Assembly (NCBI GenBank): GCA_964597995.1 | Contig: CAZRAC010000003.1 | Location: 1 to 59,923, forward strand | Reading direction: 5' to 3' | Origin: an uncultured Syntrophaceae bacterium | Lineage (GTDB): Bacteria > Desulfobacterota > Syntrophia > Syntrophales > UBA4778 | Length of the DNA stretch: 59,923 nt | Part shown: positions 12,733 through 51,583 of the stretch, in pieces | Numbering within the stretch: position 1 is the stretch's first letter | How the letters are laid out: the number at the start of each line of letters is the position of its first letter | Position numbers and translations under genes: made by a program | Notes under the pieces: model-generated | Told to the model about the DNA's origin: nothing | Databases searched by the model: none | Seen by the model: the letters and a program-made list of their open reading frames with translations, nothing else

Positions 12733-12969
12733 GCATGTCTGCTCTGATGTAAGATTTGGGACTCCGAGGTCGTCGAGTACCGACGAGTTGTGGTTATTGT
12801 AAACATTGATTGTATTCCTAATTTCTCGGGTGGAATTGCTTAATTGCCTGTGTTAAAAGACGTAGTTTGGGTTTTTGCGGCTCTGTCCTTTCTACGATGA
12901 GAGCTTCGTTACATCCGGGCTGGGAAAGTCTTTCTGTTGTGCTCAAGCTGGATGATGGGGAACCACCCT

Positions 12970-14757
12970 ATGGGTTTTGTTCGTTCTGAGGCAGAGGAAG
13001 TCAAGAGAAGGACGAACATCGTCGATGTCGTATCAGAATATGTTCCTCTCAAGAAATCCGGGGTCAACTATACCGGTCTCTGTCCTTTCCATAAGGAAAA
13101 GACACCTTCTTTCTCGGTGAATGAAGACAAGCAAATCTTCTACTGCTTCGGCTGCGGGGAGGGTGGTGACGTATTCGCTTTTATCATGAAAATCAATGAC
13201 ATGAGCTTTCCGGAGGCGCTCAGGTACGTTGCGGGAAAGGTCGGGATAAGTCTTTCTAAGGAATACAGGGGCGTAGGGAGTAGTGCCGGGAAGAGCCTGC
13301 GGGAGGAAATTCTCAGGGTTAACGGAATGGCAGCGGACTACTATGCCGGGAATCTTTTGTCCGTTGCGGGGGAAGAGGCCAGGGTTTACCTTAAACGAAG
13401 GGGTCTCCGGGAGGATGTGGTCAGGACATTCCGGCTGGGATATTCCCTCCCCGGATGGCACAATCTCAATGGTTATTTCGAGGGTAGGAAGGTTTCCTCG
13501 GGATTACTCGAGAAGGCCGGCCTCGTGATAAGAAGAGATGACGGTGCTTATTATGACCGCTTCAGGGGAAGGTTGATGTTCCCGATCGAGGGTGTCAACG
13601 GAAACGTGGTCGCCTTTGGGGGGAGGTCACTGGGGGATGAAGTCCCCAAGTACCTTAACTCGCCCGAATCCCCCGTTTATGTCAAAGGGAGGAACCTCTT
13701 CGGCCTGAGCAGGGCGAAAGAAGAAATCCGTCGTCACAACGAGGCGATAATAGTAGAAGGATACTTTGACCTTCTCCAACTCTGGAACGCCGGCATAAGG
13801 AACGTCGTTGCCACCCTTGGGACGGCACTGACCGCGGATCAACTCAGTCTGTTGCGCCGTTATACGAGGAACGTCGTTCTTCTGTTCGATTCCGACGAAG
13901 GGGGAAGGCATGCGATTGAACGAAGCCTGAAGCTTTTTGTTGCGGAGAAGATACATGCAAAGATCGTAATCCTTCCGGAAGGTTACGACCCGGACACCTA
14001 TGTTTTGAAGGAAGGAAAAGAGGCCTTGGCGGGTCTGATCTCCAAATCACAATCCATGATAGACTATTACATCGACCATATCATCGGAGCTAAAAAAGGT
14101 TTGGAAGACCGGCTGGAGACGCTCGGCCGGGCCGTAGGTTTCATCGTTCAAGTAGATGATGTAAAATTAAGGGATATAATGATGACGCGGGTCTCAGAGC
14201 GACTCAGGATTTCCGAAGAAATTCTTAGAACCGAGATCCGCAAGGCGATTTCGTCAAAAGAGGGCAAGCCCCGGGAAAGAGGCGAGGTTTTGCAGCCTTT
14301 GAGGTCCCGGAAAGCCGACCCGATCGAGCTGAATTTCATCCATCTTCTCGTGGAGCACCCTGAATGGCATAGGGCAGTTCAGGAGGAAAAAGTTCTGGAT
14401 AATCTGCTGAGCAGTGAACTGAGGGCTCTGGGCCAGTATATTCTTGAAGAATCCCGGAGAGGAGAGAAGATTGACGTCAATATGGTCGTCGACCGCGTCG
14501 ACGACGAGGAGATGAAAAAAAAACTGTTCAGACGTTTCATGGAGGGGGTCTATCATGATGCGGGGATCGCCGAGAAAGAGTTTACGGATACAGTTTTGAA
14601 GATAAAGAGACGATGGCTTAAACAGCGAAGAAAATTGCTGGAGATGGAACTCGTAAAGGCACAGGAAGACAAGAACCGTTGCGACCTCCTGCTTGGCGAG
14701 CAGCAGCGGTTGGTCGAGGAAGAAAAAGAATTATCATTCAGTATCAGGGAGCATTAA
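12970..14757 (+). CDS. dnaG: DNA primase
   Basis: [16 protein letters not shown] zinc finger, [31 protein letters not shown] and FDSDEGG. Confidence 0.97.
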
Positions 14758-14759
14758 AA

Positions 14760-16514
14760 ATGCGAAAGAGTATGCATTCAGACGAGATAAAGAAATTGAT
14801 TTCCCTGGGAGAGGAGAAGGGATTCTTGACTTACGACGACGTTAACGACATCCTGCCTTCCGATGTGACTTCTCCGGAAGAGATCGACGACATCATCATG
14901 CTCTTCGGCGAGAAGAACATCGATATCATAGACACGGACAAAGGTGAAAAGATAGTCCTCAAGAAGACGGCCGAGGAAATCGCCGAAGGGAAGGAGGAGG
15001 AAGAAGACCTCTCCGCCCTTCTGACCACGGCGGGAAAGACGGGCGATCCGGTGAAGATGTACCTGCGCGAGATGGGCGTAGTATCTTTGCTCAATCGCGA
15101 GGGCGAAATTGAGATCGCAAAGAAGATTGAGGAAGGTGAAAGAGAAGTCATGGAAGCGGTTTTCAGCGTTGCCACTTCCGTGAAGGATGTCATCGACATC
15201 GCCAAGAAGCTTCGTAGCGAGGACCTGCGGATCAAGAATGTCGTTGACAACCTCGAGGATGAAGACGGGTTCGTCGAGGAGGATATGCACCGGGAAAGAG
15301 TCCTGGAACTCATCGATAAGATTGCCCGGATCGAGAAGAGGAACGACACGCAGAGGAAGAAGATTGCCGATAGGTTCTCGACTGCAGAGGAAAAAAAGGC
15401 GGCAAAACAGGAGTTGGCCAAGAACACCAAGAAGATTGTCGAGCTTTCCCGGGAGATCAAGTTCAGCAAGAAGCAGATCAACCGCATGGTGTCAAGACTG
15501 AAAGACGCGGCGAATGAAATCAAGAAGGCCGAGGAGAAAGTCCTGCTGTGTAAGGATCGGACGGGTATGACCATCAAAGAAATGGAGAAGACCGTCGCTG
15601 AGATGAACCGGAATCCGGATAAGGCAGGCAAGATCGCGCGAGAATTGAGGGTTTCCATAAAGCGGATGAAGGAGTGCGAGGCAGCGATCAAGGAATGTCG
15701 GATAGTCACCAGGAAAGTTACGGCGGGAATCGGGCTTCCGGTCCCTCTTCTGAAAAACGTGGTTGCAAGGATAGAGGAAGGAGAGACGAAGGCCAACGAG
15801 GCCAAGAAAAAGCTGATAGAAGCCAATCTCAGGCTTGTGGTCAGCATAGCGAAAAAATATACCAACAGGGGCATGCAGTTTCTCGACCTCATCCAGGAAG
15901 GCAACATCGGTCTGATGAAGGCAGTCGATAAGTTCGAATATCAGCGCGGCTACAAGTTCTCGACTTATGCGACATGGTGGATACGCCAGGCGATCACCAG
16001 GGCGATTGCCGACCAGGCGCGGACGATCCGGATTCCGGTCCATATGATCGAGACCATCAACAAGCTCATCAGGACATCCCGCTATTTAGTGCAGGAATTA
16101 GGCCGAGAACCAAACCCGGAAGAAATCGCGGAAAAGATGGAGTTCCCCCTCGAAAAGGTCAGAAAAGTCCTGAGGATTGCCAAAGAACCTATTTCTCTCG
16201 AGACGCCCATAGGCGAAGAGGAAGACAGTCATCTGGGTGATTTCATAGAAGACAAGAAGATCATGTCACCCTCCGACGCCGCCATCAGCATGGACCTTGC
16301 CAAACAGACGCGAAAAATCTTGGCGACACTGACACCGCGGGAGGAAAAGGTCTTGCGGATGCGTTTCGGGATCGGCGAGCGCTCCGACTACATGGAAGAG
16401 GCCATAGACGACTTAGGCGCGACACTGGAGCGCACTAGGCAGATCGAGGCGAATGCACTGAAAATGTTAAGAAATCCGTCAAGGCGGCGGGAACTCAAGA
16501 TGGTCGTGAAATGA
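14760..16514 (+). CDS. rpoD: RNA polymerase sigma70 factor with an atypical region 4.2
   Basis: Regions 1.1/1.2 ([11 protein letters not shown]), 2 ([66 protein letters not shown]) and 3 are canonical; follows dnaG. ATG 14772 is an alternative start. Confidence 0.96.
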
Positions 16515-16632: not shown

Positions 16633-16705
16633 GGGCCCATAGCTCAACTGGAAGAGCCACCGGCTCATAACCGGTAGGTCCCTGGTTCGAACCCAGGTGG
16701 GCCCA
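16633..16705 (+). tRNA. tRNA with CAU anticodon, most likely tRNA-Ile2 (lysidine type); CCA not encoded
   Basis: Cloverleaf: GGGCCCA/TGGGCCC acceptor stem, GCTC/GAGC D arm, ACCGG-CTCATAA-CCGGT anticodon arm, CCTGG-TTCGAAC-CCAGG T arm. Position after rpoD matches ileX-type synteny. Confidence 0.92.
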
Positions 16706-18006: not shown

Positions 18007-18458
18007 GTTGGAGTAGACGAGATGATCGCCGGTCCGCTTGGGGTGGGCCGGAGGAAAGTCCGAGCTCCACAGGGCAGGATGGTCGCTAACGGCGACTGGG
18101 GGTGACCCCAAGGAAAGTGCCACAGAAAAGATACCGCCCACCGGCTGCAAGCTGGGATTCGGGTTTGGAATCGCCGAGTTTCGGTTAGTTTTGAATTCTG
18201 AACTCTGCGGTGATGACCGCGGTGGGTAAGGGTGAAAAGGTGAGGTAAGAGCTCACCAGTTTCCTGGGTGACCGGGAAAGCTTGGTAAACCCCATCCGGA
18301 GCAAGACCAAATAGGAGGACGCTTGAGGGCTGCCCGTCCGATGTCCTCGGGTAGAGTCGCTTGAGGCACCGGGCAACCGGTGTCCCAGAGGAATGATCAT
18401 CGCCCTTCAACGGGTGACCGTGAAAGGGAACAGAACTCGGCTTATCGGCTGCTCCAAC
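18007..18458 (+). ncRNA. rnpB: RNase P RNA (bacterial type A) with an expanded P12
   Basis: GGAGGAAAGTCCGAGCTC, GAAAGTGCCACAGAAA, GGTAAACCCCATCCGGAGCAAG, AGAACTCGGCTTAT; the 5' and 3' flanks pair (GTTGGAG/CTCCAAC). Confidence 0.97.
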
Positions 18459-18494
18459 ATCAAACACTCAGTAGAAACGACGAACTGATCTGAG

Positions 18495-22812: not shown

Positions 22813-22840
22813 GAAATCAATCACCTGAAATCAATCACCT
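22813..22840. repeat. Perfect 14-bp direct tandem repeat x2
   Basis: GAAATCAATCACCT GAAATCAATCACCT, abutting the stop codon of the Cache gene. Confidence 0.85.
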
Positions 22841-24158
22841 ACTTGTTGTCTTCTTCTTCATCTTCGTAATAGTCAACCACTTCCTGCGAACCTTCCGGCA
22901 CCTCGGCTGCGATGGACCGAGAAATTCCTCGAGCCAGTAAAGCGGAGATCAGGAAAAGAATGACCACAGATATGATCAGGATCAGGATGATCGTTGTCGA
23001 CCACGCCTTCGCTTCTTTTTCGATCTTCTGCGACGTTGCGACGGCAAGTTCGTTCCACTTTTCTACGTCGACACCCATCCCGACCCAACCAAAACCGCCC
23101 GGTTTAGGATAGTCGTCGGTGAAGAACTTGATCGGTGCATAGGCGACGAACTTCGTATGGCCACCGAATTTGTATGTCTTGATGCCGGAGTTTCCGGCGG
23201 CTGCGTCCTTCGCTATCTCAGGTAGGTTCGGGTCCATGAAGCCGAGAAGATTGAGGTTCAGGACTTCCTCTCCCTTTTTGACCTGCTCTTCGGCTGTCTT
23301 CTCCGTCAGAGGAGGAACCGGTCTCCCGTCTTTGTACAGGCCCGCGATATGGTAGTCGTTTGGGTGCGAGATCATGAACCCCTTGTTGTCGACCATATAG
23401 GCATAATTACCTGTGGAAGCGTCGGCCTCAAAAACAAGTTGTGCCTGTGTCGGGATGATATGATCGGTGAAGCCGGCGAGGTGCCTGTAATCAAGAGCCA
23501 GAACGACCACTCCGGCGAAACCTTCTTTGCTGAACAACGGGGTTGCAAAGCGGATAACCCCCGTGAATCTTTTATTTTGTTGCTCGAACTCCTGTCTATT
23601 GACGTACCATCCGGTGACACGGCCGACGTATATATCGCCCTTGTTCAGAGCCTTCGCCTTGTTGAAGTAGTCTTCCGACTTGTAAAGGGTGTTGGCCGGA
23701 TTGCTCACATTGACCAATTTTGACTTCGGCACAACCTGGCCGTTTGATATCTTGATCTGTTCATTGCCGTTTCTGTCAATGAGCGCCATCTCCGTGTAGA
23801 GGAGAGCAGGTTCCTGGACGATTTTGTCGTTCGACTTCACCCAGATATTTCTTTTGTTTTCATTGACGAACTGTTTGAACGCCGCCTCGGTGGCTGGGAT
23901 GATGGTGGCCACCAGCAGGTCCTTTTTTCTCTCACTGAGGAAGCTGGCGACCTCATCTGCTGTATTGATGGTCCGTATTTTTATTTCTTCCTGAGATTTT
24001 TGATCGAGAACGGTGACGGCACGTTCTTTTGCTGTAATCCCAAGTTTGAATATTCCATTGGCGATAAGAATCGCCATCAACGATAAGGGGATTACTATAA
24101 GCAGGAAGAAGACCCTTGCTACAGTGAAAAGCTGCTTGTCTTTTTTTGTGTCTGGCAT
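22839..24158 (-). CDS. Membrane-anchored Cache-domain sensor protein with no cytoplasmic output domain
   Basis: TM at ~13-35, a ~350-aa extracytoplasmic region (IRFATPLF..GVVVLALD, YAYMVDNKGFMISHP, FVAYAPI), second TM at ~390-410, then only a ~30-aa acidic tail. Confidence 0.8.
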   Translation of the reverse strand: MPDTKKDKQLFTVARVFFLLIVIPLSLMAILIANGIFKLGITAKERAVTVLDQKSQEEIKIRTINTADEVASFLSERKKDLLVATIIPATEAAFKQFVNENKRNIWVKSNDKIVQEPALLYTEMALIDRNGNEQIKISNGQVVPKSKLVNVSNPANTLYKSEDYFNKAKALNKGDIYVGRVTGWYVNRQEFEQQNKRFTGVIRFATPLFSKEGFAGVVVLALDYRHLAGFTDHIIPTQAQLVFEADASTGNYAYMVDNKGFMISHPNDYHIAGLYKDGRPVPPLTEKTAEEQVKKGEEVLNLNLLGFMDPNLPEIAKDAAAGNSGIKTYKFGGHTKFVAYAPIKFFTDDYPKPGGFGWVGMGVDVEKWNELAVATSQKIEKEAKAWSTTIILILIISVVILFLISALLARGISRSIAAEVPEGSQEVVDYYEDEEEDNK

Positions 24159-24210
24159 CGCCTTCTCCCCCTAACTTTGTTAGTTTTGAATTAATCGTTC
24201 GACCGTTAAA

Positions 24211-24585
24211 TTAACCCAAAAAATAACGCATATAGGGGTTTGCGTAGAGGAGAACGAGCGAAACGACCAGGGCGTAAATGGTAATCGATTCCGCCATTGC
24301 CATACCCACGAGCATCGTTGTCAAGATCTTACCCTGGACGCCGGGGTTTCTTCCGACAGCCTGGCATGCGCCGCTTGCGGCATTTCCGATTCCTGCACCG
24401 GCGCCGATTGCACCGCCACCAATCGCTATACCTGCAGCTATCATCGCACCTACAGCGAAGATCACCTTCGTGTAAGGTTCACCCGTCGGAAGGGCTTCCG
24501 CCGCGAATACTACCGGTGAACACACAAACAGAGTTACCACGGCTGAGAAAAGGGTTAGTAAAGTCTTTCCGAATTTCTTTAACAT
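24211..24585 (-). CDS. atpE: F-type ATP synthase subunit c, paralog 1, with a signal-peptide-like N-terminal extension
   Basis: GAIGAGAGIG glycine motif, GRNPG loop, MAESITIY (ion-binding Glu), LYANP; AAGGAG RBS. Confidence 0.95.
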   Translation of the reverse strand: MLKKFGKTLLTLFSAVVTLFVCSPVVFAAEALPTGEPYTKVIFAVGAMIAAGIAIGGGAIGAGAGIGNAASGACQAVGRNPGVQGKILTTMLVGMAMAESITIYALVVSLVLLYANPYMRYFLG

Positions 24586-24695
24586 CTGTCCAATCTCCTT
24601 TCATGGGGTAAAGTAACCTGAATGACCAACCTTTTCCTTGTAACATAATTCTGTATCCAAAGAAAAGGAAAAGCTCTTCAGTTGCCCGCCCTATA

Positions 24696-24711
24696 TGCAA
24701 TGAATGTGCCT
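24696..24711 (-). promoter_or_regulatory. sigma54 (-24/-12) promoter driving atpE paralog 1
   Basis: Minus strand reads AGGCAC-ATTCA-TTGCA with exact GG-N10-GC spacing, ~110 nt upstream of the ATG. Confidence 0.75.
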
Positions 24712-24811
24712 CAATCTTCGGGGGTCGTCAGATGTGGCTAAGGTTGGACAAACATAGGGCTAATTATTACCGTCGGCGAAGTGTAGTGAGTGCGTTTATA
24801 CGGACTGCGTT

Positions 24812-24866
24812 TGACGTTTCGTTACACTGGAGAGGGAAATTTAACGAAATGTTAAATGAAACGTCA
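24812..24866. promoter_or_regulatory. Candidate upstream activator sequences (nested inverted repeats)
   Basis: TGACGTTTC(24812-20)/GAAACGTCA(24858-66), TTTCGTTA/TAACGAAA and ATTTAAC-N5-GTTAAAT, ~100-155 bp upstream of the sigma54 site. Confidence 0.55.
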
Positions 24867-24909
24867 TGAGGCGATGAAAGAACGTAGGCCCACGGAGGGA
24901 TGTTTTTTA

Positions 24910-24938
24910 TTGAAAAATGACAGTCGGGGCGATAGTAT
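24910..24938 (+). promoter_or_regulatory. Candidate sigma70 promoter for the small-protein / kinase operon
   Basis: TTGAAA-17 nt-TAGTAT. Confidence 0.5.
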
Positions 24939-25052
24939 CCTTTTGTACACGATCATTTAAAATGGCAGAAGTGTTAGTGCTGTGCAAAGCTATGGAGTAT
25001 GTTTTTTTCGTCCTGTCTTTCACCTTTAGCTCAAGTTGGAGTGGATCAGAAG

Positions 25053-25232
25053 ATGCAGGAAATATTGACCGCTGTAACATACCTTGTGGCCTGGTTAGCA
25101 TGCGAAAAAGTTTTTCACATCGAAAGCGGCCTCACCAAACTTCTCATCTCTCTTGGTGCCGCCGTTGGCGTCTATGTCCTGATAGCTGTGAAGGAAAGCC
25201 GCGAGAAGACACGGAAGGGACGAGACGATTGA
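25053..25232 (+). CDS. Small (59 aa) membrane protein with two hydrophobic segments
   Basis: GGAG RBS upstream; two hydrophobic stretches and a charged tail; stop 7 nt before the kinase start. Confidence 0.65.
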   Translation: MQEILTAVTYLVAWLACEKVFHIESGLTKLLISLGAAVGVYVLIAVKESREKTRKGRDD

Positions 25233-25239
25233 GCGGTGC

Positions 25240-27831
25240 ATGACTCCATCTATGGAAAATAAAAGAATAATTCCTATATGGTTGGCGACCGTCATCGTCA
25301 TCTTGATGGTAATCCTTTTTTCCATGCTCATAAATCGTGCGCGGGAAAAGGAAATCGTCGAGCGGTTCAGCCGTCAGCAAATGGCCATAGCCAAGGGGTT
25401 GGCCGCGGGGATCGAAGACCTTATCGCCGACGTGGGAAAAAGTATGATGATCCATTCCCTGCGGCTGACCAGCGGGCGGAAGGCGATCGTCTCCTTAAGA
25501 GAAGATGTCAGGGTAATCTTTGACAGCTTAGGTGCCAAGGTGAAGTTCGTCGCGGCAGACGGCGCAGACGGTAGCCCTATTGTCTATCCCTCTGACTACC
25601 GGCAGGCCTTTTTGACTAAGAGGCCTGAGATGCAGGCACTGATGAGAGAGGTGAAAAGGACTGGGAAGCCCCATGTCGGCGATTTTCTAAGAAAAGAAGG
25701 AAATGTCGGTGCTGAAAGAATCGGCGAGGACGAAACACTGGTAGTGGTCGCGGTTCCGCGGTTTGGTCAAGACAGGGAGGTTATCGGCGCCTTTTATGCC
25801 GCCCTATCTCTTTCCACCGTCGTCGACAGGTATATTTTGCCGGCGAAAGATGAATTTTCTTGCGAGGTCTGGCTGGTAGACGAAAAGGGGATGATCGCCT
25901 TCCATACCAACGGGCATCTGGCGGGTCGAGAGGCGGATGTACTTGAGACGGAGCAGCCGTCAGGAGGTCTCTCCCTGAAGAGTAGGATGATGGCCGGGGG
26001 CGAAGGCATAGGTGAGTATCGGTTGCTTCGGGGAAAAGGCCGCGAGGAAAGGCAGATCGTCGCCTTTTCGCCGGTCGGGCTCGACTCGAGAAAGTGGTCG
26101 GTGGCAGTCAGTCTCCCGTACCAGGCAGCGGTATCCCACTTGAAAAAAACGTTCGTCATCTTGATGCTGGAGGCCCTTGTTCTGATCGTTACAGCCGTCG
26201 TTGGGGCTGCGATGATTTTCTATACCAGCAGGCGGCGCCTTGTCTTGGAACAGGAGTTGAAGCGGTTCAAAGAACGGGATGATTTGCAGGAGAAGCTTGC
26301 CAGAGAGAAACGCACTATGGAGGGGATCATTGAGGGTTCTCCTATACCCACTTTTGTCATCGACCGGGACCACAAGGTCATTTTCTGGAACCGGGCCTGT
26401 GAGGAGTTGACGGGGTGCCGGAGCGTGGAAATGATAGGGACGGACAAGCAGTATATGCCCTTTTATCCCGAGAAGCGGCCGGTGATCGCCGATTTGATCG
26501 TAGATAATGACTTTGAGGGCCTGGATAAGTATTACGGGAAGAAGCAGGTTCAGAAGTCGTCGGTGGTGGAGAAGGCATACGAGGCGAGAGATTTTTATGA
26601 GAATCTGGGCGGTCGCAGGCGGCACCTTTATTTTCTCGCGGCGCCCATCTATGATGAGAACGGCCAGATAATCGCGGCGATCGAGACACTCCAGGATGTG
26701 ACCCGAGAGAGGGAGATGGAGTTAGCCCTGAAGGAATACGCCGAGACACTGAAGAACGAACTCTACGAGAACATTAAGCTAAAAAAGGACATAGAGGAGC
26801 TTTACAACTATCTTCAGTTCATCCTGGAAAGTTCCCCGGACCGGATATTCGACGTGACGAGCGATGGAACGATCAATTTCGTCAGCCGCAGCCTAGACTC
26901 CGGCACAGGAGCAAAGCAACTTCAAGGGAGGCATTTTACGGAGTTTGTGGCGCCCGAGCACAAAGAGTTCCTCATGAAAAGGTGGGAAGAGATCAAAGGA
27001 GGTCAATACCATCCTTTCGAGATAGAGGCGACAGCGAGAGACGGGACGAAACGAAACCTGTTGATCACCCCAAGGCCTATCAAGGGAACGGACCGTTATC
27101 TGTTCGTCCAGCGGGATATCACTGAATTCAAGGACCTGGAGAAGAAATTTTACGACAGCCAGAAACTCGCGGCGGTGGGACAACTCTCGGCAGGCATCGC
27201 CCACGAGGTGAGGAACCCGCTTTCGTCGATCAAAATGAGCCTTCAGATCCTGCAAAAGCGACTTCGCCCGGAAGGCAATGACCTAAAGAGGTTCAAGATT
27301 GCCGAGAAAGAAGTGGAGCATCTGGAAAAGATCGTCAGTGACATACTGCTCTTCGCTAAACCCATGGAACCGGACATGAGGCCGGGAGACGTCAACTCCT
27401 TCATCGACAGTTCTTTGTTGATGGCGGAGAAAGAGATATTGGAAAAGAAGATCGAGGTCCGCGCCGATTACGACAGCGATATCCCGCAGGCAAACTACGA
27501 CCCCGGGATGCTCAGGCAGGCGCTCCTGAACCTCTACCTAAACGCCATAGATGCGATGGATGAAGGAGGAGTACTAACCATCTCGACACGTTTTGTCAGG
27601 AAAGGTGATGGTGAATGGGTGCTGATAGAGATCGAGGACAACGGGTCCGGTATCGACGAAGAGGACATCCCCCACCTCTTTAACCCGTTTTTCACTCGGA
27701 AGAAGTATGGGACCGGGTTGGGATTGGCACAGGTAAAGAAAATCATCGACCTCCATCGGGGTACAATAGAAATCGTCAGCGTGAAGGGCCGGGGGACGAA
27801 GGTGTCTGTTGCGCTACCGGCAGGCGGGTAA
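25240..27831 (+). CDS. Sensor histidine kinase (TM-Cache-TM-PAS-PAS-HisKA-HATPase)
   Basis: H box AGIAHEVRNPLSSI, N box NLYLNAIDAM, G boxes EDNGSGI and GTGLGL; two PAS-like segments. Confidence 0.95.
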   Translation: MTPSMENKRIIPIWLATVIVILMVILFSMLINRAREKEIVERFSRQQMAIAKGLAAGIEDLIADVGKSMMIHSLRLTSGRKAIVSLREDVRVIFDSLGAKVKFVAADGADGSPIVYPSDYRQAFLTKRPEMQALMREVKRTGKPHVGDFLRKEGNVGAERIGEDETLVVVAVPRFGQDREVIGAFYAALSLSTVVDRYILPAKDEFSCEVWLVDEKGMIAFHTNGHLAGREADVLETEQPSGGLSLKSRMMAGGEGIGEYRLLRGKGREERQIVAFSPVGLDSRKWSVAVSLPYQAAVSHLKKTFVILMLEALVLIVTAVVGAAMIFYTSRRRLVLEQELKRFKERDDLQEKLAREKRTMEGIIEGSPIPTFVIDRDHKVIFWNRACEELTGCRSVEMIGTDKQYMPFYPEKRPVIADLIVDNDFEGLDKYYGKKQVQKSSVVEKAYEARDFYENLGGRRRHLYFLAAPIYDENGQIIAAIETLQDVTREREMELALKEYAETLKNELYENIKLKKDIEELYNYLQFILESSPDRIFDVTSDGTINFVSRSLDSGTGAKQLQGRHFTEFVAPEHKEFLMKRWEEIKGGQYHPFEIEATARDGTKRNLLITPRPIKGTDRYLFVQRDITEFKDLEKKFYDSQKLAAVGQLSAGIAHEVRNPLSSIKMSLQILQKRLRPEGNDLKRFKIAEKEVEHLEKIVSDILLFAKPMEPDMRPGDVNSFIDSSLLMAEKEILEKKIEVRADYDSDIPQANYDPGMLRQALLNLYLNAIDAMDEGGVLTISTRFVRKGDGEWVLIEIEDNGSGIDEEDIPHLFNPFFTRKKYGTGLGLAQVKKIIDLHRGTIEIVSVKGRGTKVSVALPAGG

Positions 27832-27841
27832 CAATAGAGGG

Positions 27842-27899
27842 TATACGGTGAAGGGCAAACAGTAAACGGTGGTTTATGGGGTGAACGGAGCAACGGGTT
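27842..27899. repeat. Degenerate 7-bp-periodic intergenic repeat
   Basis: TATACGG TGAAGGG CAAACAG TAAACGG ... CAACGGG directly after the kinase stop. Confidence 0.5.
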
Positions 27900-27977
27900 G
27901 AGATGACATGAAAAATGTCTTTCAACTTTTTGTGAGTTCGTCGCCGCTTATTCCAACTGCTCACTTTCAGGGACGTT

Positions 27978-29348
27978 ATGGCCAAGATCATTGTGATTGA
28001 CGATGACAGGTCGATCAGTGAATCCCTCGAGTTGTATCTCTCGGAGGAGGGGCATGAGGTAATGACGGCCAATACAGGAACGGACGGCCTAAACTTGGTC
28101 CTCCAGACGTCGCCGGACATCGTCATCCTGGACATCCGACTGCCCGACATCGACGGGTTTACCGTCCTTGAAGACCTGAAAGAGGAGAACGTGGATGCCA
28201 AGGTGATAATGATAACCGCCCACCACGACATGGAGACCACGATCAAGGCCATGAAGGAAGGGGCCTTTGACTACATCCATAAACCCATAAACATAGATGA
28301 ATTGGACATCGCTATCCAGAAGGCCATCAATACGTTGGAGATGGAGAAGAAGATCAACGGCCTTCTCACGGAACCATCCCGGAGCTTCAAGGTCGGCGAC
28401 ATAATCGGCACCGGGAAGGCCATGCTGGATATCTTCAAAGTAATCGGCGTGGTCACCCAGAGCAAGACCACCGTCCTTATCCAGGGCGAGAGTGGAACCG
28501 GCAAGGAACTGATCGCCAAGGTGATCCACAACAATACTTCTCCCACCGAGCCTTATATCGCCATAAATTGCTCGGCCATCGTAGACACCTTGCTCGAGTC
28601 GGAACTCTTCGGGCATGAGAAGGGGTCTTTCACGGGGGCCATCAACCGGAAGCCGGGGAAGTTCGAACTTGCCCGCCATGGCACCGTCTTTCTGGATGAG
28701 ATCAGTGAGATGTCCCTGAACCTCCAGGCAAAACTCCTCAGGGTTCTCCAGGAGATGGAATTCGAGCGGGTGGGCGGGAAAGACCGCGTCAAGGTGAACG
28801 CAAGGATAATCGCCGCCACGAATAAGGACCTGAAGACCCTGGTCGAGGAAGGTAAGTTCAGGGACGACCTGTATTATCGCCTCAACATCGTCACGATCAA
28901 CATCCCTCCCCTCAGGGAGAGGAGGGAGGACATCCCCTTGCTCGTCGATTATCTGCTGAAGAAGATAAACCGGGATCTCCACAAGAACATCGTCGGCGTT
29001 TCGAAAGAAATGATGGACGTCTTCATGAAATACGGTTGGCCCGGTAACGTCCGTGAACTCGAGAATATCCTTGTACGTGCGGCCGTCGTCGCCAAAGGGC
29101 AGGTGCTCGGGCGCGAGGATTTCCCCGATTTGCTGGGTAGCGCGCAGGTACCGAAGGCACCGGCGGCGCTTGCCGGGGAAGAAGAGGAAGGGACCGGTTT
29201 TGAGACCCTTGACGAGATAGAGGAACGTCATATCCGCAGAGTCATCGCCAAGGTGGGCAGGAACAAAGGTGAAATCTGTGAGATCCTGGGTATATCACGC
29301 CCTACCCTCGAAAGAAAACTTGAGAAATACGGTATCCGTTTCGATTGA
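27978..29348 (+). CDS. NtrC-family sigma54-dependent response regulator (REC-AAA+-HTH)
   Basis: LDIRLPD receiver, QGESGTGKE Walker A, ESELFGHEKGSFTGA, FLDEISE, WPGNVRELEN, LGISRPTLERKL HTH. Confidence 0.96.
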   Translation: MAKIIVIDDDRSISESLELYLSEEGHEVMTANTGTDGLNLVLQTSPDIVILDIRLPDIDGFTVLEDLKEENVDAKVIMITAHHDMETTIKAMKEGAFDYIHKPINIDELDIAIQKAINTLEMEKKINGLLTEPSRSFKVGDIIGTGKAMLDIFKVIGVVTQSKTTVLIQGESGTGKELIAKVIHNNTSPTEPYIAINCSAIVDTLLESELFGHEKGSFTGAINRKPGKFELARHGTVFLDEISEMSLNLQAKLLRVLQEMEFERVGGKDRVKVNARIIAATNKDLKTLVEEGKFRDDLYYRLNIVTINIPPLRERREDIPLLVDYLLKKINRDLHKNIVGVSKEMMDVFMKYGWPGNVRELENILVRAAVVAKGQVLGREDFPDLLGSAQVPKAPAALAGEEEEGTGFETLDEIEERHIRRVIAKVGRNKGEICEILGISRPTLERKLEKYGIRFD

Positions 29349-39593: not shown

Positions 39594-39635
39594 GACAAAT
39601 TTTGTCTTGGCATTTATGATGCGTTTTGCTATAGT
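39594..39635 (+). promoter_or_regulatory. sigma70 promoter for nfnAB with an abutting palindrome
   Basis: TTGGCA(39607)-17 nt-TATAGT with extended TGn; GACAAA-T-TTTGTC immediately upstream. Confidence 0.6.
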
Positions 39636-39880: not shown

Positions 39881-40717
39881 TTGTTCAAAATCACTGAAAA
39901 GACATTTTTACAGGAAAACGTGGTCCGAATGGTCTTGGAGGCCCCGGAGATTGCTCGTAAGCGAAAGGCCGGCCAATTCGTTGTTCTGATGATCGACGAA
40001 AAAGGGGAGAGGATCCCGCTTACCATCGTCGATTCCGACAACGAGAATGGGACGCTGACCATCATCTTTCAGGTCGTGGGCAAGACGACGGCCTACCTTG
40101 CGGAGCTCAATCCGGGGGATTCTATTCTGCATGTGTTGGGTCCCCTGGGCCATCCTACGGAGGTCGAAAACTTCGGAACCTCCGTCTGTGTGGGTGGCGG
40201 CGTTGGGGTCGGCGTCGTGTATCCCATAGCCGCGGCGCTCAAGAAGGCGGGCAACAAAGTTATCTCGATCATCGGGGCCCGAACGAGAGACCTCCTTATC
40301 CTCGAAGATGAGATGGGACGGGTGAGCGACCGGCTGCTGGTGGCAACCGATGACGGCAGTTACGGTTTTCACGGTTTCGTGAGCGCGGTGCTTCAGAGCG
40401 TCATCGATTTGGGGGAGAAGATCGACAGGGTCTTTGCCATCGGACCGGTTCCGATGATGCGGGTGATTTGCGATGTTACGAGGCCGTATGGCATCAAGAC
40501 GATCGTCAGCCTGAACCCGATCATGGTGGATGCCACGGGGATGTGCGGCGCCTGCAGGGTGTCCGTAGGGGGAACGACTAAGTTCGGCTGCGTGGATGGC
40601 CCGGAATTCGACGGCCATCAGGTGGACTTCGGCCTCTTGATGAGCAGGCTCAGGATGTACTGCGACCAGGAGAGGCAATCTATGGATTTGTTCAGGTGCG
40701 GTCGGCATGGAAAATAG
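39881..40717 (+). CDS. nfnA: NfnA (SudB-like) subunit of the electron-bifurcating transhydrogenase
   Basis: TTG start; AGQFVVL..GERIPLTI, GPLGHP, VGGGVG, MVDATGMCGACRV..CVDGPEFDGH. Confidence 0.9.
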   Translation: MFKITEKTFLQENVVRMVLEAPEIARKRKAGQFVVLMIDEKGERIPLTIVDSDNENGTLTIIFQVVGKTTAYLAELNPGDSILHVLGPLGHPTEVENFGTSVCVGGGVGVGVVYPIAAALKKAGNKVISIIGARTRDLLILEDEMGRVSDRLLVATDDGSYGFHGFVSAVLQSVIDLGEKIDRVFAIGPVPMMRVICDVTRPYGIKTIVSLNPIMVDATGMCGACRVSVGGTTKFGCVDGPEFDGHQVDFGLLMSRLRMYCDQERQSMDLFRCGRHGK

Positions 40718-42131
40718 AGAACAGGTTGAAAGAAAAGAAAAAAAGGAGAAGGTCCCCAGGCAGTCCATGCCCGAGCAGGACCCGAAAGAACGCATAAAGA
40801 ACTTCGAAGAAGTTCCTTACGGTTACACTACGGAGCAGGCCCTCCTTGAGGCAAGTCGGTGCATCCAATGCAAGAAACCGGGGTGCATCGCCGGGTGCCC
40901 GGTGGATGTCGATATTCCCGGTTTCATAAAACTGATCGCGGAGGGGAAATTCGTCGAGGCTGCATGGAAGTTGAAAGAAACAAACGCCCTTCCGGCAGTC
41001 TGCGGGAGGGTCTGTCCTCAGGAAGATCAGTGCGAAAAGGTATGCATCCTGGGCAAGAAGGGCGACCCGGTGGCAATCGGGAGGCTGGAGCGGTTCGCGG
41101 CGGATTACGAACGTGCGACGGGGAGCGTCCAGGTACCCAAGGTCGCAGCGGCTACGGGTAAGAGGGTAGCCGTCGTTGGTGCGGGGCCGGCTGGGCTGAC
41201 GATCGCCGGTGACCTTGTGAAAGTCGGCCACGACGTTACGGTGTTCGAGGCTCTTCACAAGCCGGGAGGGGTGTTGGTCTATGGGATTCCTGAGTTTCGT
41301 CTGCCCAAGGCCATCGTCGATGCCGAGGTGAGTTACCTCGAAAATCTCGGAGTGAAGATAGTCACGGATGCAGTGATAGGTAGGCTGAAGACCGTCGACG
41401 ACCTGTTTGCCGAAGGGTTTCAAGCGGTTTTTCTTGGTGTCGGCGCCGGTGCCCCCGTGTTTATGAACATACCGGGGGAGAACCTCTCCGGCATCTACTC
41501 CGCGAACGAATATCTTACTAGGTCCAACCTGATGAAGGCCTACCGTTTTCCCGAGTTCGACACACCGATCGTGAGAGGCAGAAATGTGGCCGTCATCGGG
41601 GGAGGGAACGTGGCCATGGATTCGGTGCGGACGGCCCTGCGTCTCGGGGCGGAAAACGCCTACATCATCTACCGGCGCTCGAAGGTGGAGATGCCCGCCA
41701 GGATAGAGGAGGTTCACCATGCCGAGGAGGAAGGCGTGCAGTTTAATTTTCTTACCAACCCCGTCGAGTACATCGGCGACGAAGACGGCTGGGTGAAAAA
41801 AATGGTCTGCAACCGGATGGAACTCGGCGAGCCCGATGGATCGGGCAGGCGCAGGCCCATCGTGATTCCGGGTTCGGAATTCACGATCGATGTAGACACC
41901 GTCGTCGTCGCAATCGGCACCACGGCCAACCCGGTGATCCCCAGGACTACGCCGGGGCTTGAAGTAAATAAATGGGGCTATATTGTGACGAAGGACGGCA
42001 CGGGAGAAACGACCCGCAAGGGCGTATACGCGGGCGGAGACATTGTCACCGGCTCCGCTACCGTCATCCTCGCCATGGGCGCCGGTCGTCAGGCGGCGAA
42101 GGCCGTCGACGAATACATAAGGACATTGTGA
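40707..42131 (+). CDS. nfnB: NfnB (GltD-like) subunit
   Basis: RCIQCKKPGC..GCP, VCGRVCPQEDQCE, GAGPAGL, GGGNVAMD..YRRS, AGGDIVTG; overlaps nfnA. Confidence 0.9.
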   Translation: MENREQVERKEKKEKVPRQSMPEQDPKERIKNFEEVPYGYTTEQALLEASRCIQCKKPGCIAGCPVDVDIPGFIKLIAEGKFVEAAWKLKETNALPAVCGRVCPQEDQCEKVCILGKKGDPVAIGRLERFAADYERATGSVQVPKVAAATGKRVAVVGAGPAGLTIAGDLVKVGHDVTVFEALHKPGGVLVYGIPEFRLPKAIVDAEVSYLENLGVKIVTDAVIGRLKTVDDLFAEGFQAVFLGVGAGAPVFMNIPGENLSGIYSANEYLTRSNLMKAYRFPEFDTPIVRGRNVAVIGGGNVAMDSVRTALRLGAENAYIIYRRSKVEMPARIEEVHHAEEEGVQFNFLTNPVEYIGDEDGWVKKMVCNRMELGEPDGSGRRRPIVIPGSEFTIDVDTVVVAIGTTANPVIPRTTPGLEVNKWGYIVTKDGTGETTRKGVYAGGDIVTGSATVILAMGAGRQAAKAVDEYIRTL

Positions 42132-50998: not shown

Positions 50999-51027
50999 TT
51001 GACAATTTTTTTTGCTGAAGCTAAAAG
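50999..51027 (+). promoter_or_regulatory. Candidate sigma70 promoter of atpE paralog 2
   Basis: TTGACA-17 nt-TAAAAG (no T at -7). Confidence 0.5.
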
Positions 51028-51142
51028 CTCCCCTTGAGTAGGAGAAAGAGTGTAGAAGGGGGGTGAAGGAGAGCGGGATAAAAAGCAGGAATAAAAAGCG
51101 GCAATGGCATTTCAGTCGAACTTAAACGAAAGGATGGTAAAA

Positions 51143-51520
51143 ATGAGGAAAGTAAGGATACTTGCAGCTTCTCTTTTGAGTCTCTTCGGAGTGCTCGTGT
51201 TTGCGACTTTTGCGATGGCAGCACAGGGAGCGGCGGCCACCGAGGGAAGCATCAACTACACCAAGGCAATCGTCGTGGGATGCTCTCTCATCGCCGCCGG
51301 ACTCTCGATTGGGTTGGGTGCTAACGGAACCGGCCACGGCATGGGGCAGGCGACAAGCGGCAGTGCAAGCGCCGTGGGAAGAAACCCGGAGGCACAGGGA
51401 AAGATCCTGCTGACCATGATGGTCGGTCTCGCGATGGCGGAATCGGTCGCGATTTACGCGCTCGTCGTTTCTCTCATCATTCTTTACGCCAACCCGTTGT
51501 TGAAGGTAATCGCCGGTTAA
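51143..51520 (+). CDS. atpE: F-type ATP synthase subunit c, paralog 2, with a signal-peptide-like N-terminal extension
   Basis: GANGTGHGMG motif, GRNPEA loop, MAESVAIY, LYANP; AAAGGA 8 nt before ATG 51143. Confidence 0.95.
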   Translation: MRKVRILAASLLSLFGVLVFATFAMAAQGAAATEGSINYTKAIVVGCSLIAAGLSIGLGANGTGHGMGQATSGSASAVGRNPEAQGKILLTMMVGLAMAESVAIYALVVSLIILYANPLLKVIAG

Positions 51521-51540
51521 GATACGGCCTCATTTGCGAA

Positions 51541-51583
51541 GGGAGAGGAAGCAAACAAAACGGACTTCTTCTCCCTTTTTTTT
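51541..51583 (+). terminator. Rho-independent terminator after atpE paralog 2
   Basis: GGGAGAGGAAG..CTTCTTCTCCC (one G-U pair) followed by 8 T. Confidence 0.75.

Follow-up and report, generated by a model that had tools for sequence, protein, structure and literature searches.

Gene content of the locus

The 59.9-kb stretch analysed here (the window) is positions 1-59,923 of contig CAZRAC010000003.1 in assembly GCA_964597995.1, from an uncultured Syntrophaceae bacterium, and it carries two separate genes for the c subunit of the F-type ATP synthase rotor. The analysis concerns the first of these, c1, with the genes and regulatory sequences around it (22839-29348) and the remote atp loci of the window. 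The c1 gene is followed by a gene for a membrane protein with a putative periplasmic dCache domain and lies divergent to genes for a small protein with two transmembrane (TM) helices, a sensor histidine kinase and an activator of sigma-54-dependent transcription (Table 1). This arrangement recurs across the order Syntrophales and points to conditional, signal-dependent production of a second rotor subunit.

Table 1. Features of the c1 locus, of the remote atp loci and of the rest of the window
Feature	Position	Strand	Description
c1, F-type ATP synthase c-subunit paralogue, 124 amino acids	24585-24211	-	signal-peptide-like N-terminal extension
TM1-dCache-TM2 membrane protein ("sensor half"), 439 amino acids	24158-22839	-	co-transcribed with c1 (predicted)
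Intrinsic terminator of c1-dCache operon	22800-22772	-	13-bp G+C-rich stem and T run, 39 nt past dCache stop codon
Leader of c1, ca. 100 nt	24586-24685	-	hairpin at ca. 24630-24668; predicted transcription start site; inverted repeats I5 and I9
Sigma-54 -24/-12 element, AGGCACATTCATTGCA	24711-24696	-	exact GGCAC-N5-TTGCA with GG-N10-GC spacing
IHF-like AT-rich site	24740-24770	.	between activator sites and promoter; weak match in window
Promoter-proximal activator site, TGTAACGAAACGTCAAA on minus strand	24810-24826	.	17-bp palindrome, centre 107 nt 5' of -24 element
Promoter-distal activator site, TTTAACATTTCGTTAAA on minus strand	24840-24856	.	17-bp palindrome, centre 137 nt 5' of -24 element
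Candidate sigma-70 promoter of small-protein/kinase/regulator operon	24910-24938	+	TTGAAA-N17-TAGTAT, 9 of 12 matches
Small 2-TM protein, 59 amino acids from M19 of a 77-residue open reading frame (start 24999)	25053-25232	+	first gene of kinase operon
Sensor histidine kinase, 863 amino acids	25240-27831	+	TM-dCache-TM-PAS-PAS-HisKA-HATPase (Pfam domains); H-box HEVRNP
NtrC-family sigma-54 activator, 456 amino acids	27978-29348	+	REC-AAA+-HTH_8: Response_reg PF00072, Sigma54_activat PF00158 (E 7.4e-67), HTH_8 PF02954
atpZ-atpI-atpB (Fo a subunit and accessory genes)	45549-44164	-	PF09527, PF03899, NCBIfam subunit A
c2 promoter	50999-51027	+	TTGACA-N17-TAAAAG, TTGACA at 50999-51004; sigma-70 type
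c2, c-subunit paralogue, coding sequence	51143-51520	+	second orphan c gene
c2 terminator	51538-51583	+	14-bp hairpin, then U8
RNase P RNA, class A, and one tRNA gene	18010-18459 and 16633-16705		Rfam scan; RNase P RNA 321.8 bits
dnaG and rpoD	12937-16514		ordinary housekeeping genes

The c1 protein matches ATP-synt_C (PF00137; E 1.8e-17, 63.7 bits against a cut-off of 24) and TIGR01260 (49.9 bits, above the cut-off of 43.95; the second paralogue, c2, scores 44.0 bits). It has the two-helix hairpin with a polar loop and the helix-2 carboxylate of an F-type c subunit, and the motifs AVGRNPGVQGK and MAMAES..IY are invariant among its orthologues. No atp gene adjoins c1, which is an orphan in this sense. 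The dCache gene starts 52 nt 3' of c1 with its own ribosome-binding site (GGGGGAG) and no terminator in between. The next gene, ppsA, was ruled out as a further member of the operon by the strong terminator that separates them.

An earlier note on this DNA had listed an orphan atpE with a GG-N10-GC sigma-54 promoter, inverted repeats at enhancer distance, a divergent set of small protein, histidine kinase and sigma-54 activator, and another atpE with a TTGACA promoter and a terminator of its own. All of these elements were found, at or near the positions it gave: the three divergent genes lie within 24999-29348, and the promoter and terminator of the other atpE both lie within 50999-51583.

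Conservation of the module in Syntrophales

Two sets of loci were compared. The genome set consisted of 80 loci from different species-level genomes and was seeded on the dCache gene; because of that seeding a reciprocal test was run, with an alignment of c1 as the seed against metagenome contigs, which gave another 80 loci. The best locus in the genome scan was that of Syntrophaceae bacterium UBA5761, at 98% identity. By tblastn, nearly all loci of the genome set with enough flanking sequence have the order engB-regulator-kinase-small protein, then the divergent c1-dCache pair, often followed by ppsA. In the c1-seeded metagenome set, the dCache gene lies 3' of c1 in all 73 loci with downstream sequence, and two-component genes lie 5' of c1-dCache in 61 of 62. 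The layout is common to about 150 independent Syntrophales loci from the two sets.

The anatomy of the locus, the domain content of its proteins and the conservation of every element were observed directly, and as comparative sequence evidence for a real regulated module, kept throughout the order, they are strong. Any account of the operon has to include the obligate dCache partner of c1, which the earlier note did not discuss.

The divergent two-component genes

The intergenic region between c1 and the small-protein gene is 413 bp long. The candidate promoter in front of the small-protein gene was identified solely by its resemblance to the sigma-70 consensus, and such matches are not commoner than chance in this region. 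Similarity to the small protein begins at residue 19 of the open reading frame in nearly all loci (tblastn). The protein belongs to no Pfam or NCBIfam family; a likeness to AtpZ was suspected and was not confirmed by the scans of these databases. In two loci (L018, L021) it is fused in frame to the kinase.

The regulator has an acceptor aspartate in its REC domain (Asp52), an AAA+ domain with Walker A (GESGTGKE), Walker B (VFLDE) and a GSFTGA loop, and a C-terminal HTH_8 domain, which is the architecture of an NtrC-family bacterial enhancer-binding protein. GSFTGA is a one-residue variant of the usual GAFTGA and is kept in 56 of 58 regulator orthologues. Identity with the AtoS/AtoC system was considered and rejected, with scores of 481.9 against a cut-off of 714 for AtoC and 269.8 against 646 for AtoS.

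The AtoS-like kinase varies in its input region. Among about 60 orthologues, some 35 have a periplasmic domain between two TM helices, 7 have a pair of neighbouring TM helices with no periplasmic domain, and about 15 are soluble proteins with PAS domains only; what is constant is the PAS-PAS-kinase core and the small protein. An extracytoplasmic signal, which had been proposed as the input of the circuit, cannot be the general one, because the periplasmic domain of the kinase is missing in about 22 of these 60 loci.

In one locus of the genome set (L024:1319-3543), genes resembling V-type ATPase subunits I and K in translations read by eye lie a few kb 5' of c1, in place of the two-component genes.

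Promoter region and leader of c1

The -24/-12 element of c1 lies 111 nt 5' of the gene, has its GG and GC doublets exactly 10 nt apart and fits TGGCAC-N5-TTGCW. It is the sole exact match to GGCAC-N5-TTGCA in the window. With one mismatch allowed, the sigma-54 pattern occurs twice in the window against 2.97 occurrences expected, which is not above chance; the element exceeds chance because it is conserved across loci, not by virtue of the window match itself. TGGCA[CT]-N5-TTGCA is found 90-115 nt 5' of the c1 start codon in about 68 of 71 genome loci, and the -24/-12 element is also present in 72 of 73 c1-seeded metagenome loci. The genome loci with the element include five that carry unrelated genes in place of the two-component system, and the activator sites, too, are kept in loci without adjacent two-component genes.

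The inverted repeats at enhancer distance (24810-24866) resolve into two 17-bp palindromes with the consensus TTGAACG-N3-CGTTCAA. When the upstream regions of many loci are aligned on the -24 element, the palindromes are centred ca. 138 and ca. 108 nt upstream, and their spacing is exactly 30 bp, roughly three helical turns, in 52 loci. They occur at 1.96 sites per locus compared to 0.095 in shuffled sequence, a 20-fold enrichment. No further copy of the site, nor any other strong sigma-54 element, occurs anywhere in the window. Between the palindromes and the promoter there is a conserved AT-rich block ca. 52 nt 5' of the -24 GG, where AT content peaks at 0.74. The consensus for the DNA-bending protein IHF, WATCAANNNNTTR, is matched perfectly in three loci (L026, L050 and L069; the copy in L026 reads TATCAAATGTTTG) and with at most one mismatch in 20 of 71.

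Activator sites ca. 100-200 bp upstream together with a gene for an enhancer-binding protein are characteristic of sigma-54 promoters, and both are present here. As read from its sequence, the promoter region of c1 is a textbook enhancer-dependent layout, and because this layout is maintained across the order, control of c1-dCache by sigma-54 and an activator is very likely. We infer with high confidence that the neighbouring regulator is the protein that activates this promoter.

The leader of c1 also appears to be structured. In the window it folds at -25.5 kcal/mol; the 5' arm of the hairpin is rich in pyrimidines (UUUCCCUUUCC), its apex carries UGUGYUA, and its purine-rich 3' arm resembles a Shine-Dalgarno sequence. 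The loop motif is found in 51 of 71 leaders. Folding z-scores for 69 distinct orthologous leaders average -1.63 and are negative in 96% of them, and the stems vary in sequence yet remain complementary. RNAalifold gave no consensus for a MAFFT alignment of 30 leaders, in which stem lengths differ; for a tighter set of 16 sequences it found only a 7-pair helix, with compensatory changes at 4 of the pairs. An Rfam scan of the window found no family in the leader. By inspection, the 5' arm could alternatively pair with the ribosome-binding site GAAAGGAGA, and because of this a translational switch in the leader is possible.

The two c-subunit paralogues

The second c gene, c2, is also an orphan. 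Its promoter, TTGACA-N17-TAnAAT, is conserved in three lineages, where it is not accompanied by a sigma-54 site. The neighbourhood of c2 (atpZIB ... hemL, an ahbAB-like gene, c2, arfB) is conserved in another genus, and atpB is ca. 6 kb from c2 both in the window and in loci L081 and L082. There is no c-subunit gene after atpB, and the next gene downstream is unrelated. In one Syntrophales subclade (L015, L023, L028 and many of the loci L088-L152), c2 lies directly 3' of the dCache gene on the opposite strand, and the two c paralogues are therefore neighbours.

Both paralogues are widespread in Syntrophales, where they form two clean clades with 61% identity over the mature part of the protein. 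The tree is unrooted, and the 120 relatives of c2 that were listed are all Syntrophales paralogues. Each protein has a signal-peptide-like N-terminal extension with an AxA site, and cleavage by the AxA rule would leave a mature protein of about 96 amino acids for c1 and about 99 for c2; such extensions also occur in c subunits of Aquifex and of other lineages whose atp operons are split. They also share the R-N-P loop, the glycines of the helix-1 GxGxGxG packing motif, and a helix-2 glutamate followed by serine, with a tyrosine five residues on. The sodium-binding c subunits of the Ilyobacter tartaricus type have a glutamine in helix 1 and a Glu-Ser-Thr triad in helix 2. In register from the R-N-P loop, the position of the glutamine is isoleucine in c1 and methionine in c2, and the threonine is replaced by isoleucine, valine or leucine in both, which rules out the sodium-site signature for c1 and c2 alike.

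The differences between the clades are consistent ones. The loop reads GVQGK in c1 and EAQGK in c2. The variable residues of the glycine motif are A, A and I in c1, while c2 has T and M at the outer positions and a variable residue in the middle. A conserved cysteine is near the end of helix 1 in c1 (GAC) and at its start in c2 (GCS). In c1 a conserved periplasmic peptide, AEALPxGESY, follows the predicted cleavage site. Since the carboxylate context, the type of residue at the glutamine position and the glycines are alike, no difference in ion or ring size is predicted. The suggestion in the earlier note that a second c subunit retunes the ion/ATP coupling of the enzyme does not find support in these features, and a changed coupling ratio through c1 is speculative and unlikely.

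Its suggestion that c1 is an alternative paralogue fared better. The sigma-54 promoter is at c1, and because c2 has a conserved sigma-70-type promoter with no sigma-54 site, c1 is plausibly the conditional paralogue. Conditional control of c1 is well supported by these promoter comparisons, and c1 is probably a conditional subunit of the single Fo.

The roles could also be reversed. If c1 were the principal, ancestral c subunit, the sigma-54 circuit would adjust enzyme quantity to energy state, with c2 as the accessory copy. The genes atpZ-atpI-atpB directly abut the c1 module, at its regulator gene, in four loci (L048, L064, L070 and L080), as if the regulator genes had been inserted between atpB and atpE; the TIGR01260 score is slightly higher for c1; and c1 is present in every Syntrophales locus examined. 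However, c2 is equally widespread, has a promoter with a consensus -35 sequence and occupies a conserved site ca. 6 kb from atpZIB in two genera, and a strictly activator-dependent promoter is unusual for a subunit that an essential enzyme needs in more copies than any other. Such a role for c1 is unlikely, and is not fully exclusive of conditional control.

The dCache protein and its relatives

In the protein encoded with c1, an N-terminal TM helix and a second TM helix flank a periplasmic region of ca. 350 residues, and an acidic tail of 29 residues closes the chain. The dCache_1 model (PF02743) scores it at E 4.6e-10 and 39.9 bits, below the cut-off of 45 bits. Two homologues exceed that cut-off (P0242, 47.2 bits; P0244, 57.7 bits), and precomputed Pfam annotation gives PF02743 for all 120 orthologues. 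The only other domain match is to HK_sensor_dom_bact (6.8e-06). There is no HisKA/HATPase transmitter, and nothing but the acidic tail follows TM2. A profile search against PDB sequences found nothing below E 0.5.

Across Syntrophales the orthologues are 65-98% identical. TM1 is the most conserved stretch of 25 residues in the protein, with a mean frequency of the commonest residue of 0.977 compared to 0.81 in the periplasmic domain (116 orthologues).

An exhaustive profile search recovered 468 representative relatives. Once orthologues and fragments are set aside, nearly all of these are longer proteins, including histidine kinases, methyl-accepting chemotaxis proteins (MCPs) and HAMP/GAF proteins, and the dCache protein aligns over its full length with their first 400-430 residues. 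Below 50% identity, the sequences most similar to it are sensor modules at the N-termini of histidine kinases and MCPs. Because its relatives carry the whole query as their N-terminal part, the dCache protein is a sensor module whose transmitter has been lost. BLASTP rules out that it is a duplicate of the sensor of the adjacent kinase (E 0.069).

Among full-length relatives P0242 is the closest, with 57% identity over TM1-dCache-TM2, after which it continues as PAS-GAF-PAS-HisKA-HATPase. P0242 and P0391, the fused form found in one deltaproteobacterial lineage, are encoded inside a cluster for an Mrp-type antiporter, in the order MrpD-like, kinase, REC-PAS-HATPase, REC, Usp, Usp, MnhE, MnhB, MrpF, MnhG, MbhD, MbhE, NuoK-like, MrpD-like. 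The Mrp-cluster loci compared were L084-L086, L167, L170 and L171, with the proteins P0242, P0391, P0429, P0435 and P0428. In the Syntrophales version of the cluster, the orthologous kinase (P0429, P0435, P0428; 810-833 amino acids) has no dCache domain and is 59-65% identical to the kinase part of P0242. It nevertheless retains TM1 (KIFFLLIVIPLALMALLL) and TM2 (...ILILSVILLLLIAALLSRGISRQY), with a loop of ca. 35 residues between them, and these helices are closely matched by TM1 (RVFFLLIVIPLSLMAILI) and TM2 (ILILIISVVILFLISALLARGISRSI) of the c1 partner. One such kinase, P0429, and the c1 locus L064 come from the same metagenome-assembled genome (MAG), JAQULO01.

A fused orthologue in another lineage and both halves in one genome are the marks of a sensor kinase split by gene fission. 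The pattern, known as Rosetta-stone, places the sensor half in the c1 operon and the kinase half in the Mrp cluster, and predicts that the two interact. Pairing with the Mrp-cluster kinase is the best current explanation for the invariant TM1, as judged by comparison of the helices, and that the sensor half does work with this kinase is a tentative proposal, given somewhat less than an even chance.

Another kinase of the PAS-GAF-PAS type, P0438 (L168, L169), has an N-terminal 2-TM module that matches ATPase_gene1 (AtpZ-like; 30.6 bits against a cut-off of 26.6). Its membrane input thus resembles an ATP synthase accessory protein.

The conservation of TM1 could have a different cause if c1 and the dCache protein formed a membrane device independent of F1, a c1 ring gated or read by a dCache protein docked on it through TM1 and serving as a sensor of a periplasmic signal or of the proton-motive force, or as a regulated proton leak. 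The pairing of c1 with dCache is without exception (73 of 73), c2 never has such a partner, c1 has its own conserved periplasmic peptide, TM1 of the dCache protein is highly conserved, and a protein with no cytoplasmic output domain must act within the membrane. The R-N-P polar loop, however, is the element of c subunits that contacts F1, and c1 retains it as an invariant feature that would be needless in a ring that never binds F1. The TM conservation is equally well explained by the Mrp-cluster kinase with the same helices, and we know of no precedent for a device of this kind, which is improbable on balance.

The least probable alternative is that the operon is mainly a positive-feedback loop with c1 as one output among several, in which the adjacent kinase would receive its external signal from the dCache protein acting with the small 2-TM protein. 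In its favour, many of these kinases are soluble or have no periplasmic domain while the small protein and dCache are always there, the small protein can be fused to the kinase, and the first PAS domain (PAS1) of the adjacent kinase is similar to that of the fused P0242 kinase. Against it, dCache is not a paralogue of the adjacent kinase's own sensor, its TM helices are unlike those of that kinase and match the Mrp-cluster kinase instead, and the c1-dCache pair persists where the neighbouring two-component genes have been lost.

Proposed mechanism

The favoured explanation is that a two-component, sigma-54-dependent module delivers c1 to Fo and the sensor half to the Mrp-cluster kinase. The small 2-TM protein, the PAS histidine kinase and the activator would make up the two-component system. 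Once phosphorylated, the REC-AAA+-HTH activator would bind the two 17-bp palindromes ca. 130-160 bp 5' of the predicted start site and activate the sigma-54 promoter, probably assisted by DNA bending at the IHF-like site. The transcript would consist of the structured leader of ca. 100 nt followed by c1 and the TM1-dCache-TM2 sensor half. c1 would thus be made conditionally and would be expected to enter the single Fo, whose a subunit is encoded by atpB, either in place of c2 or alongside it. The sensor half, induced together with c1, most likely acts within the membrane through its near-invariant TM helices, and its likeliest partner would be the sensor-less PAS-GAF-PAS kinase of the Mrp cluster, with the same TM1 and TM2. 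Such a pairing would couple remodelling of the rotor to the control of cation/proton cycling. As a whole, this explanation is given a probability of about 0.6.

Several observations weigh against it. The ion-site ligands and the glycine packing motif do not separate c1 from c2, and, with an unrooted paralogue tree, it may be c1 that is the original or principal copy. The IHF-like copy in the window, TAATTAGCCCTATGTTTG, is degenerate and a weak match. The gene for sigma-54 itself, rpoN, is not among the ten largest open reading frames upstream of the region, the part of the window scanned for it. What links the dCache protein to the Mrp-cluster kinase is common ancestry of the TM helices, and both halves were seen together in one MAG only. 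An AlphaFold 2 model of the dCache protein, built on an alignment of 14 sequences, had a mean confidence (pLDDT) of 39.8 and was unusable.

A stronger form of the favoured explanation would make the Fo rotor a signal-dependent assembly. Swapping or mixing in c1 would alter ring size and the H+/ATP ratio, leak or reversibility, and the dCache protein would dock on c1 rings or on the Mrp-cluster kinase through TM1. This extension is doubtful; if true, the gearing of ATP synthase and Mrp-type cation/proton cycling would both respond directly to a periplasmic ligand.

Comparison with known systems

The regulatory machinery of the module is of the ordinary NtrC-family kind. As in NtrBC, AtoSC and ZraSR, there is a regulator with REC, AAA+ (GAFTGA-type) and HTH_8 domains, a PAS-HisKA-HATPase kinase, tandem palindromic sites, an IHF-like site and a -24/-12 element. 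The module is nevertheless no equivalog of any of these named systems: its loop is GSFTGA, and its target is a c-subunit paralogue with an orphan sensor. This target has no precedent in the literature searched, in which neither sigma-54 or two-component control of atpE nor this operon is described. To our knowledge this would be the first case in which the c subunit alone is controlled within a single F1Fo by sigma-54 and a two-component system.

More than one type of c subunit in a genome is not in itself new. In Acetobacterium woodii, the products of atpE1, atpE2 and atpE3 form a hetero-oligomeric c ring, so that here too there is more than one c gene for a single F1Fo, with mixed rings allowed. 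The A. woodii genes, however, are co-expressed in one atp operon and one of them is of a duplicated, V-type-like form, whereas both Syntrophales paralogues are two-helix F-type orphans, predicted to use different sigma factors under separate control. The alternate F1F0 known as N-ATPase also provides a second type of c subunit in one genome; c1 was rejected as an N-ATPase c subunit, as it scores 64.8 bits against a cut-off of 130.85 for TIGR03322 and is an orphan gene with no atpDCQRBEFAG context.

YycH/YycI-WalK and UhpC-UhpB are known examples of histidine kinases that are controlled, through TM contacts, by an accessory or split membrane sensor. The dCache protein is like these in having a large extracytoplasmic domain and no transmitter, and signalling from helix to helix would be expected. 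It differs in being a truncated kinase sensor module whose TM1 and TM2 also occur in a sensor-less kinase, with a fused version in a sister lineage, and its gene accompanies that of an ATP synthase subunit and not that of the kinase.

ATP synthase genes that are chosen or regulated according to conditions have been described in other bacteria. Photobacterium profundum SS9 has duplicate ATP synthase operons that are differentially regulated (PMC10054830), and for the duplicate ATP synthase of Pelobacter carbinolicus ColRS-dependent control, a two-component link, was predicted (PMC3543383). In both of these cases whole operons are duplicated, while in Syntrophales it is the rotor subunit only that is duplicated and separately regulated.

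The module suggests, at the level of its sequence organization, that energy-converting machinery is rebuilt or regulated on a signal. Syntrophs live on energy quanta smaller than one ATP and must operate ATP synthase in either direction, as substrate and partner dictate. An order-wide circuit for a second rotor subunit would offer a testable handle on how they adjust this enzyme, comprising one promoter, one regulator and two small proteins that are easily distinguished. The obligate pairing of c1 with a transmitter-less Cache sensor is of interest for signal transduction, and the recurrence of its TM helices in the Mrp-cluster kinase suggests a split sensor-kinase that links two ion-translocating machines.

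Other features of the window

A sigma-54-like element, TGGCATTTATGATGCG, is found at 39608-39623 on the plus strand, with no activator site of the c1 type near it. It lies ca. 260 nt 5' of a gene pair (39881-42131) that looks like an oxidoreductase of the NfnAB/GltD type in translations read by eye. The RNase P RNA and the single tRNA gene were the only matches in the Rfam scan of the window.

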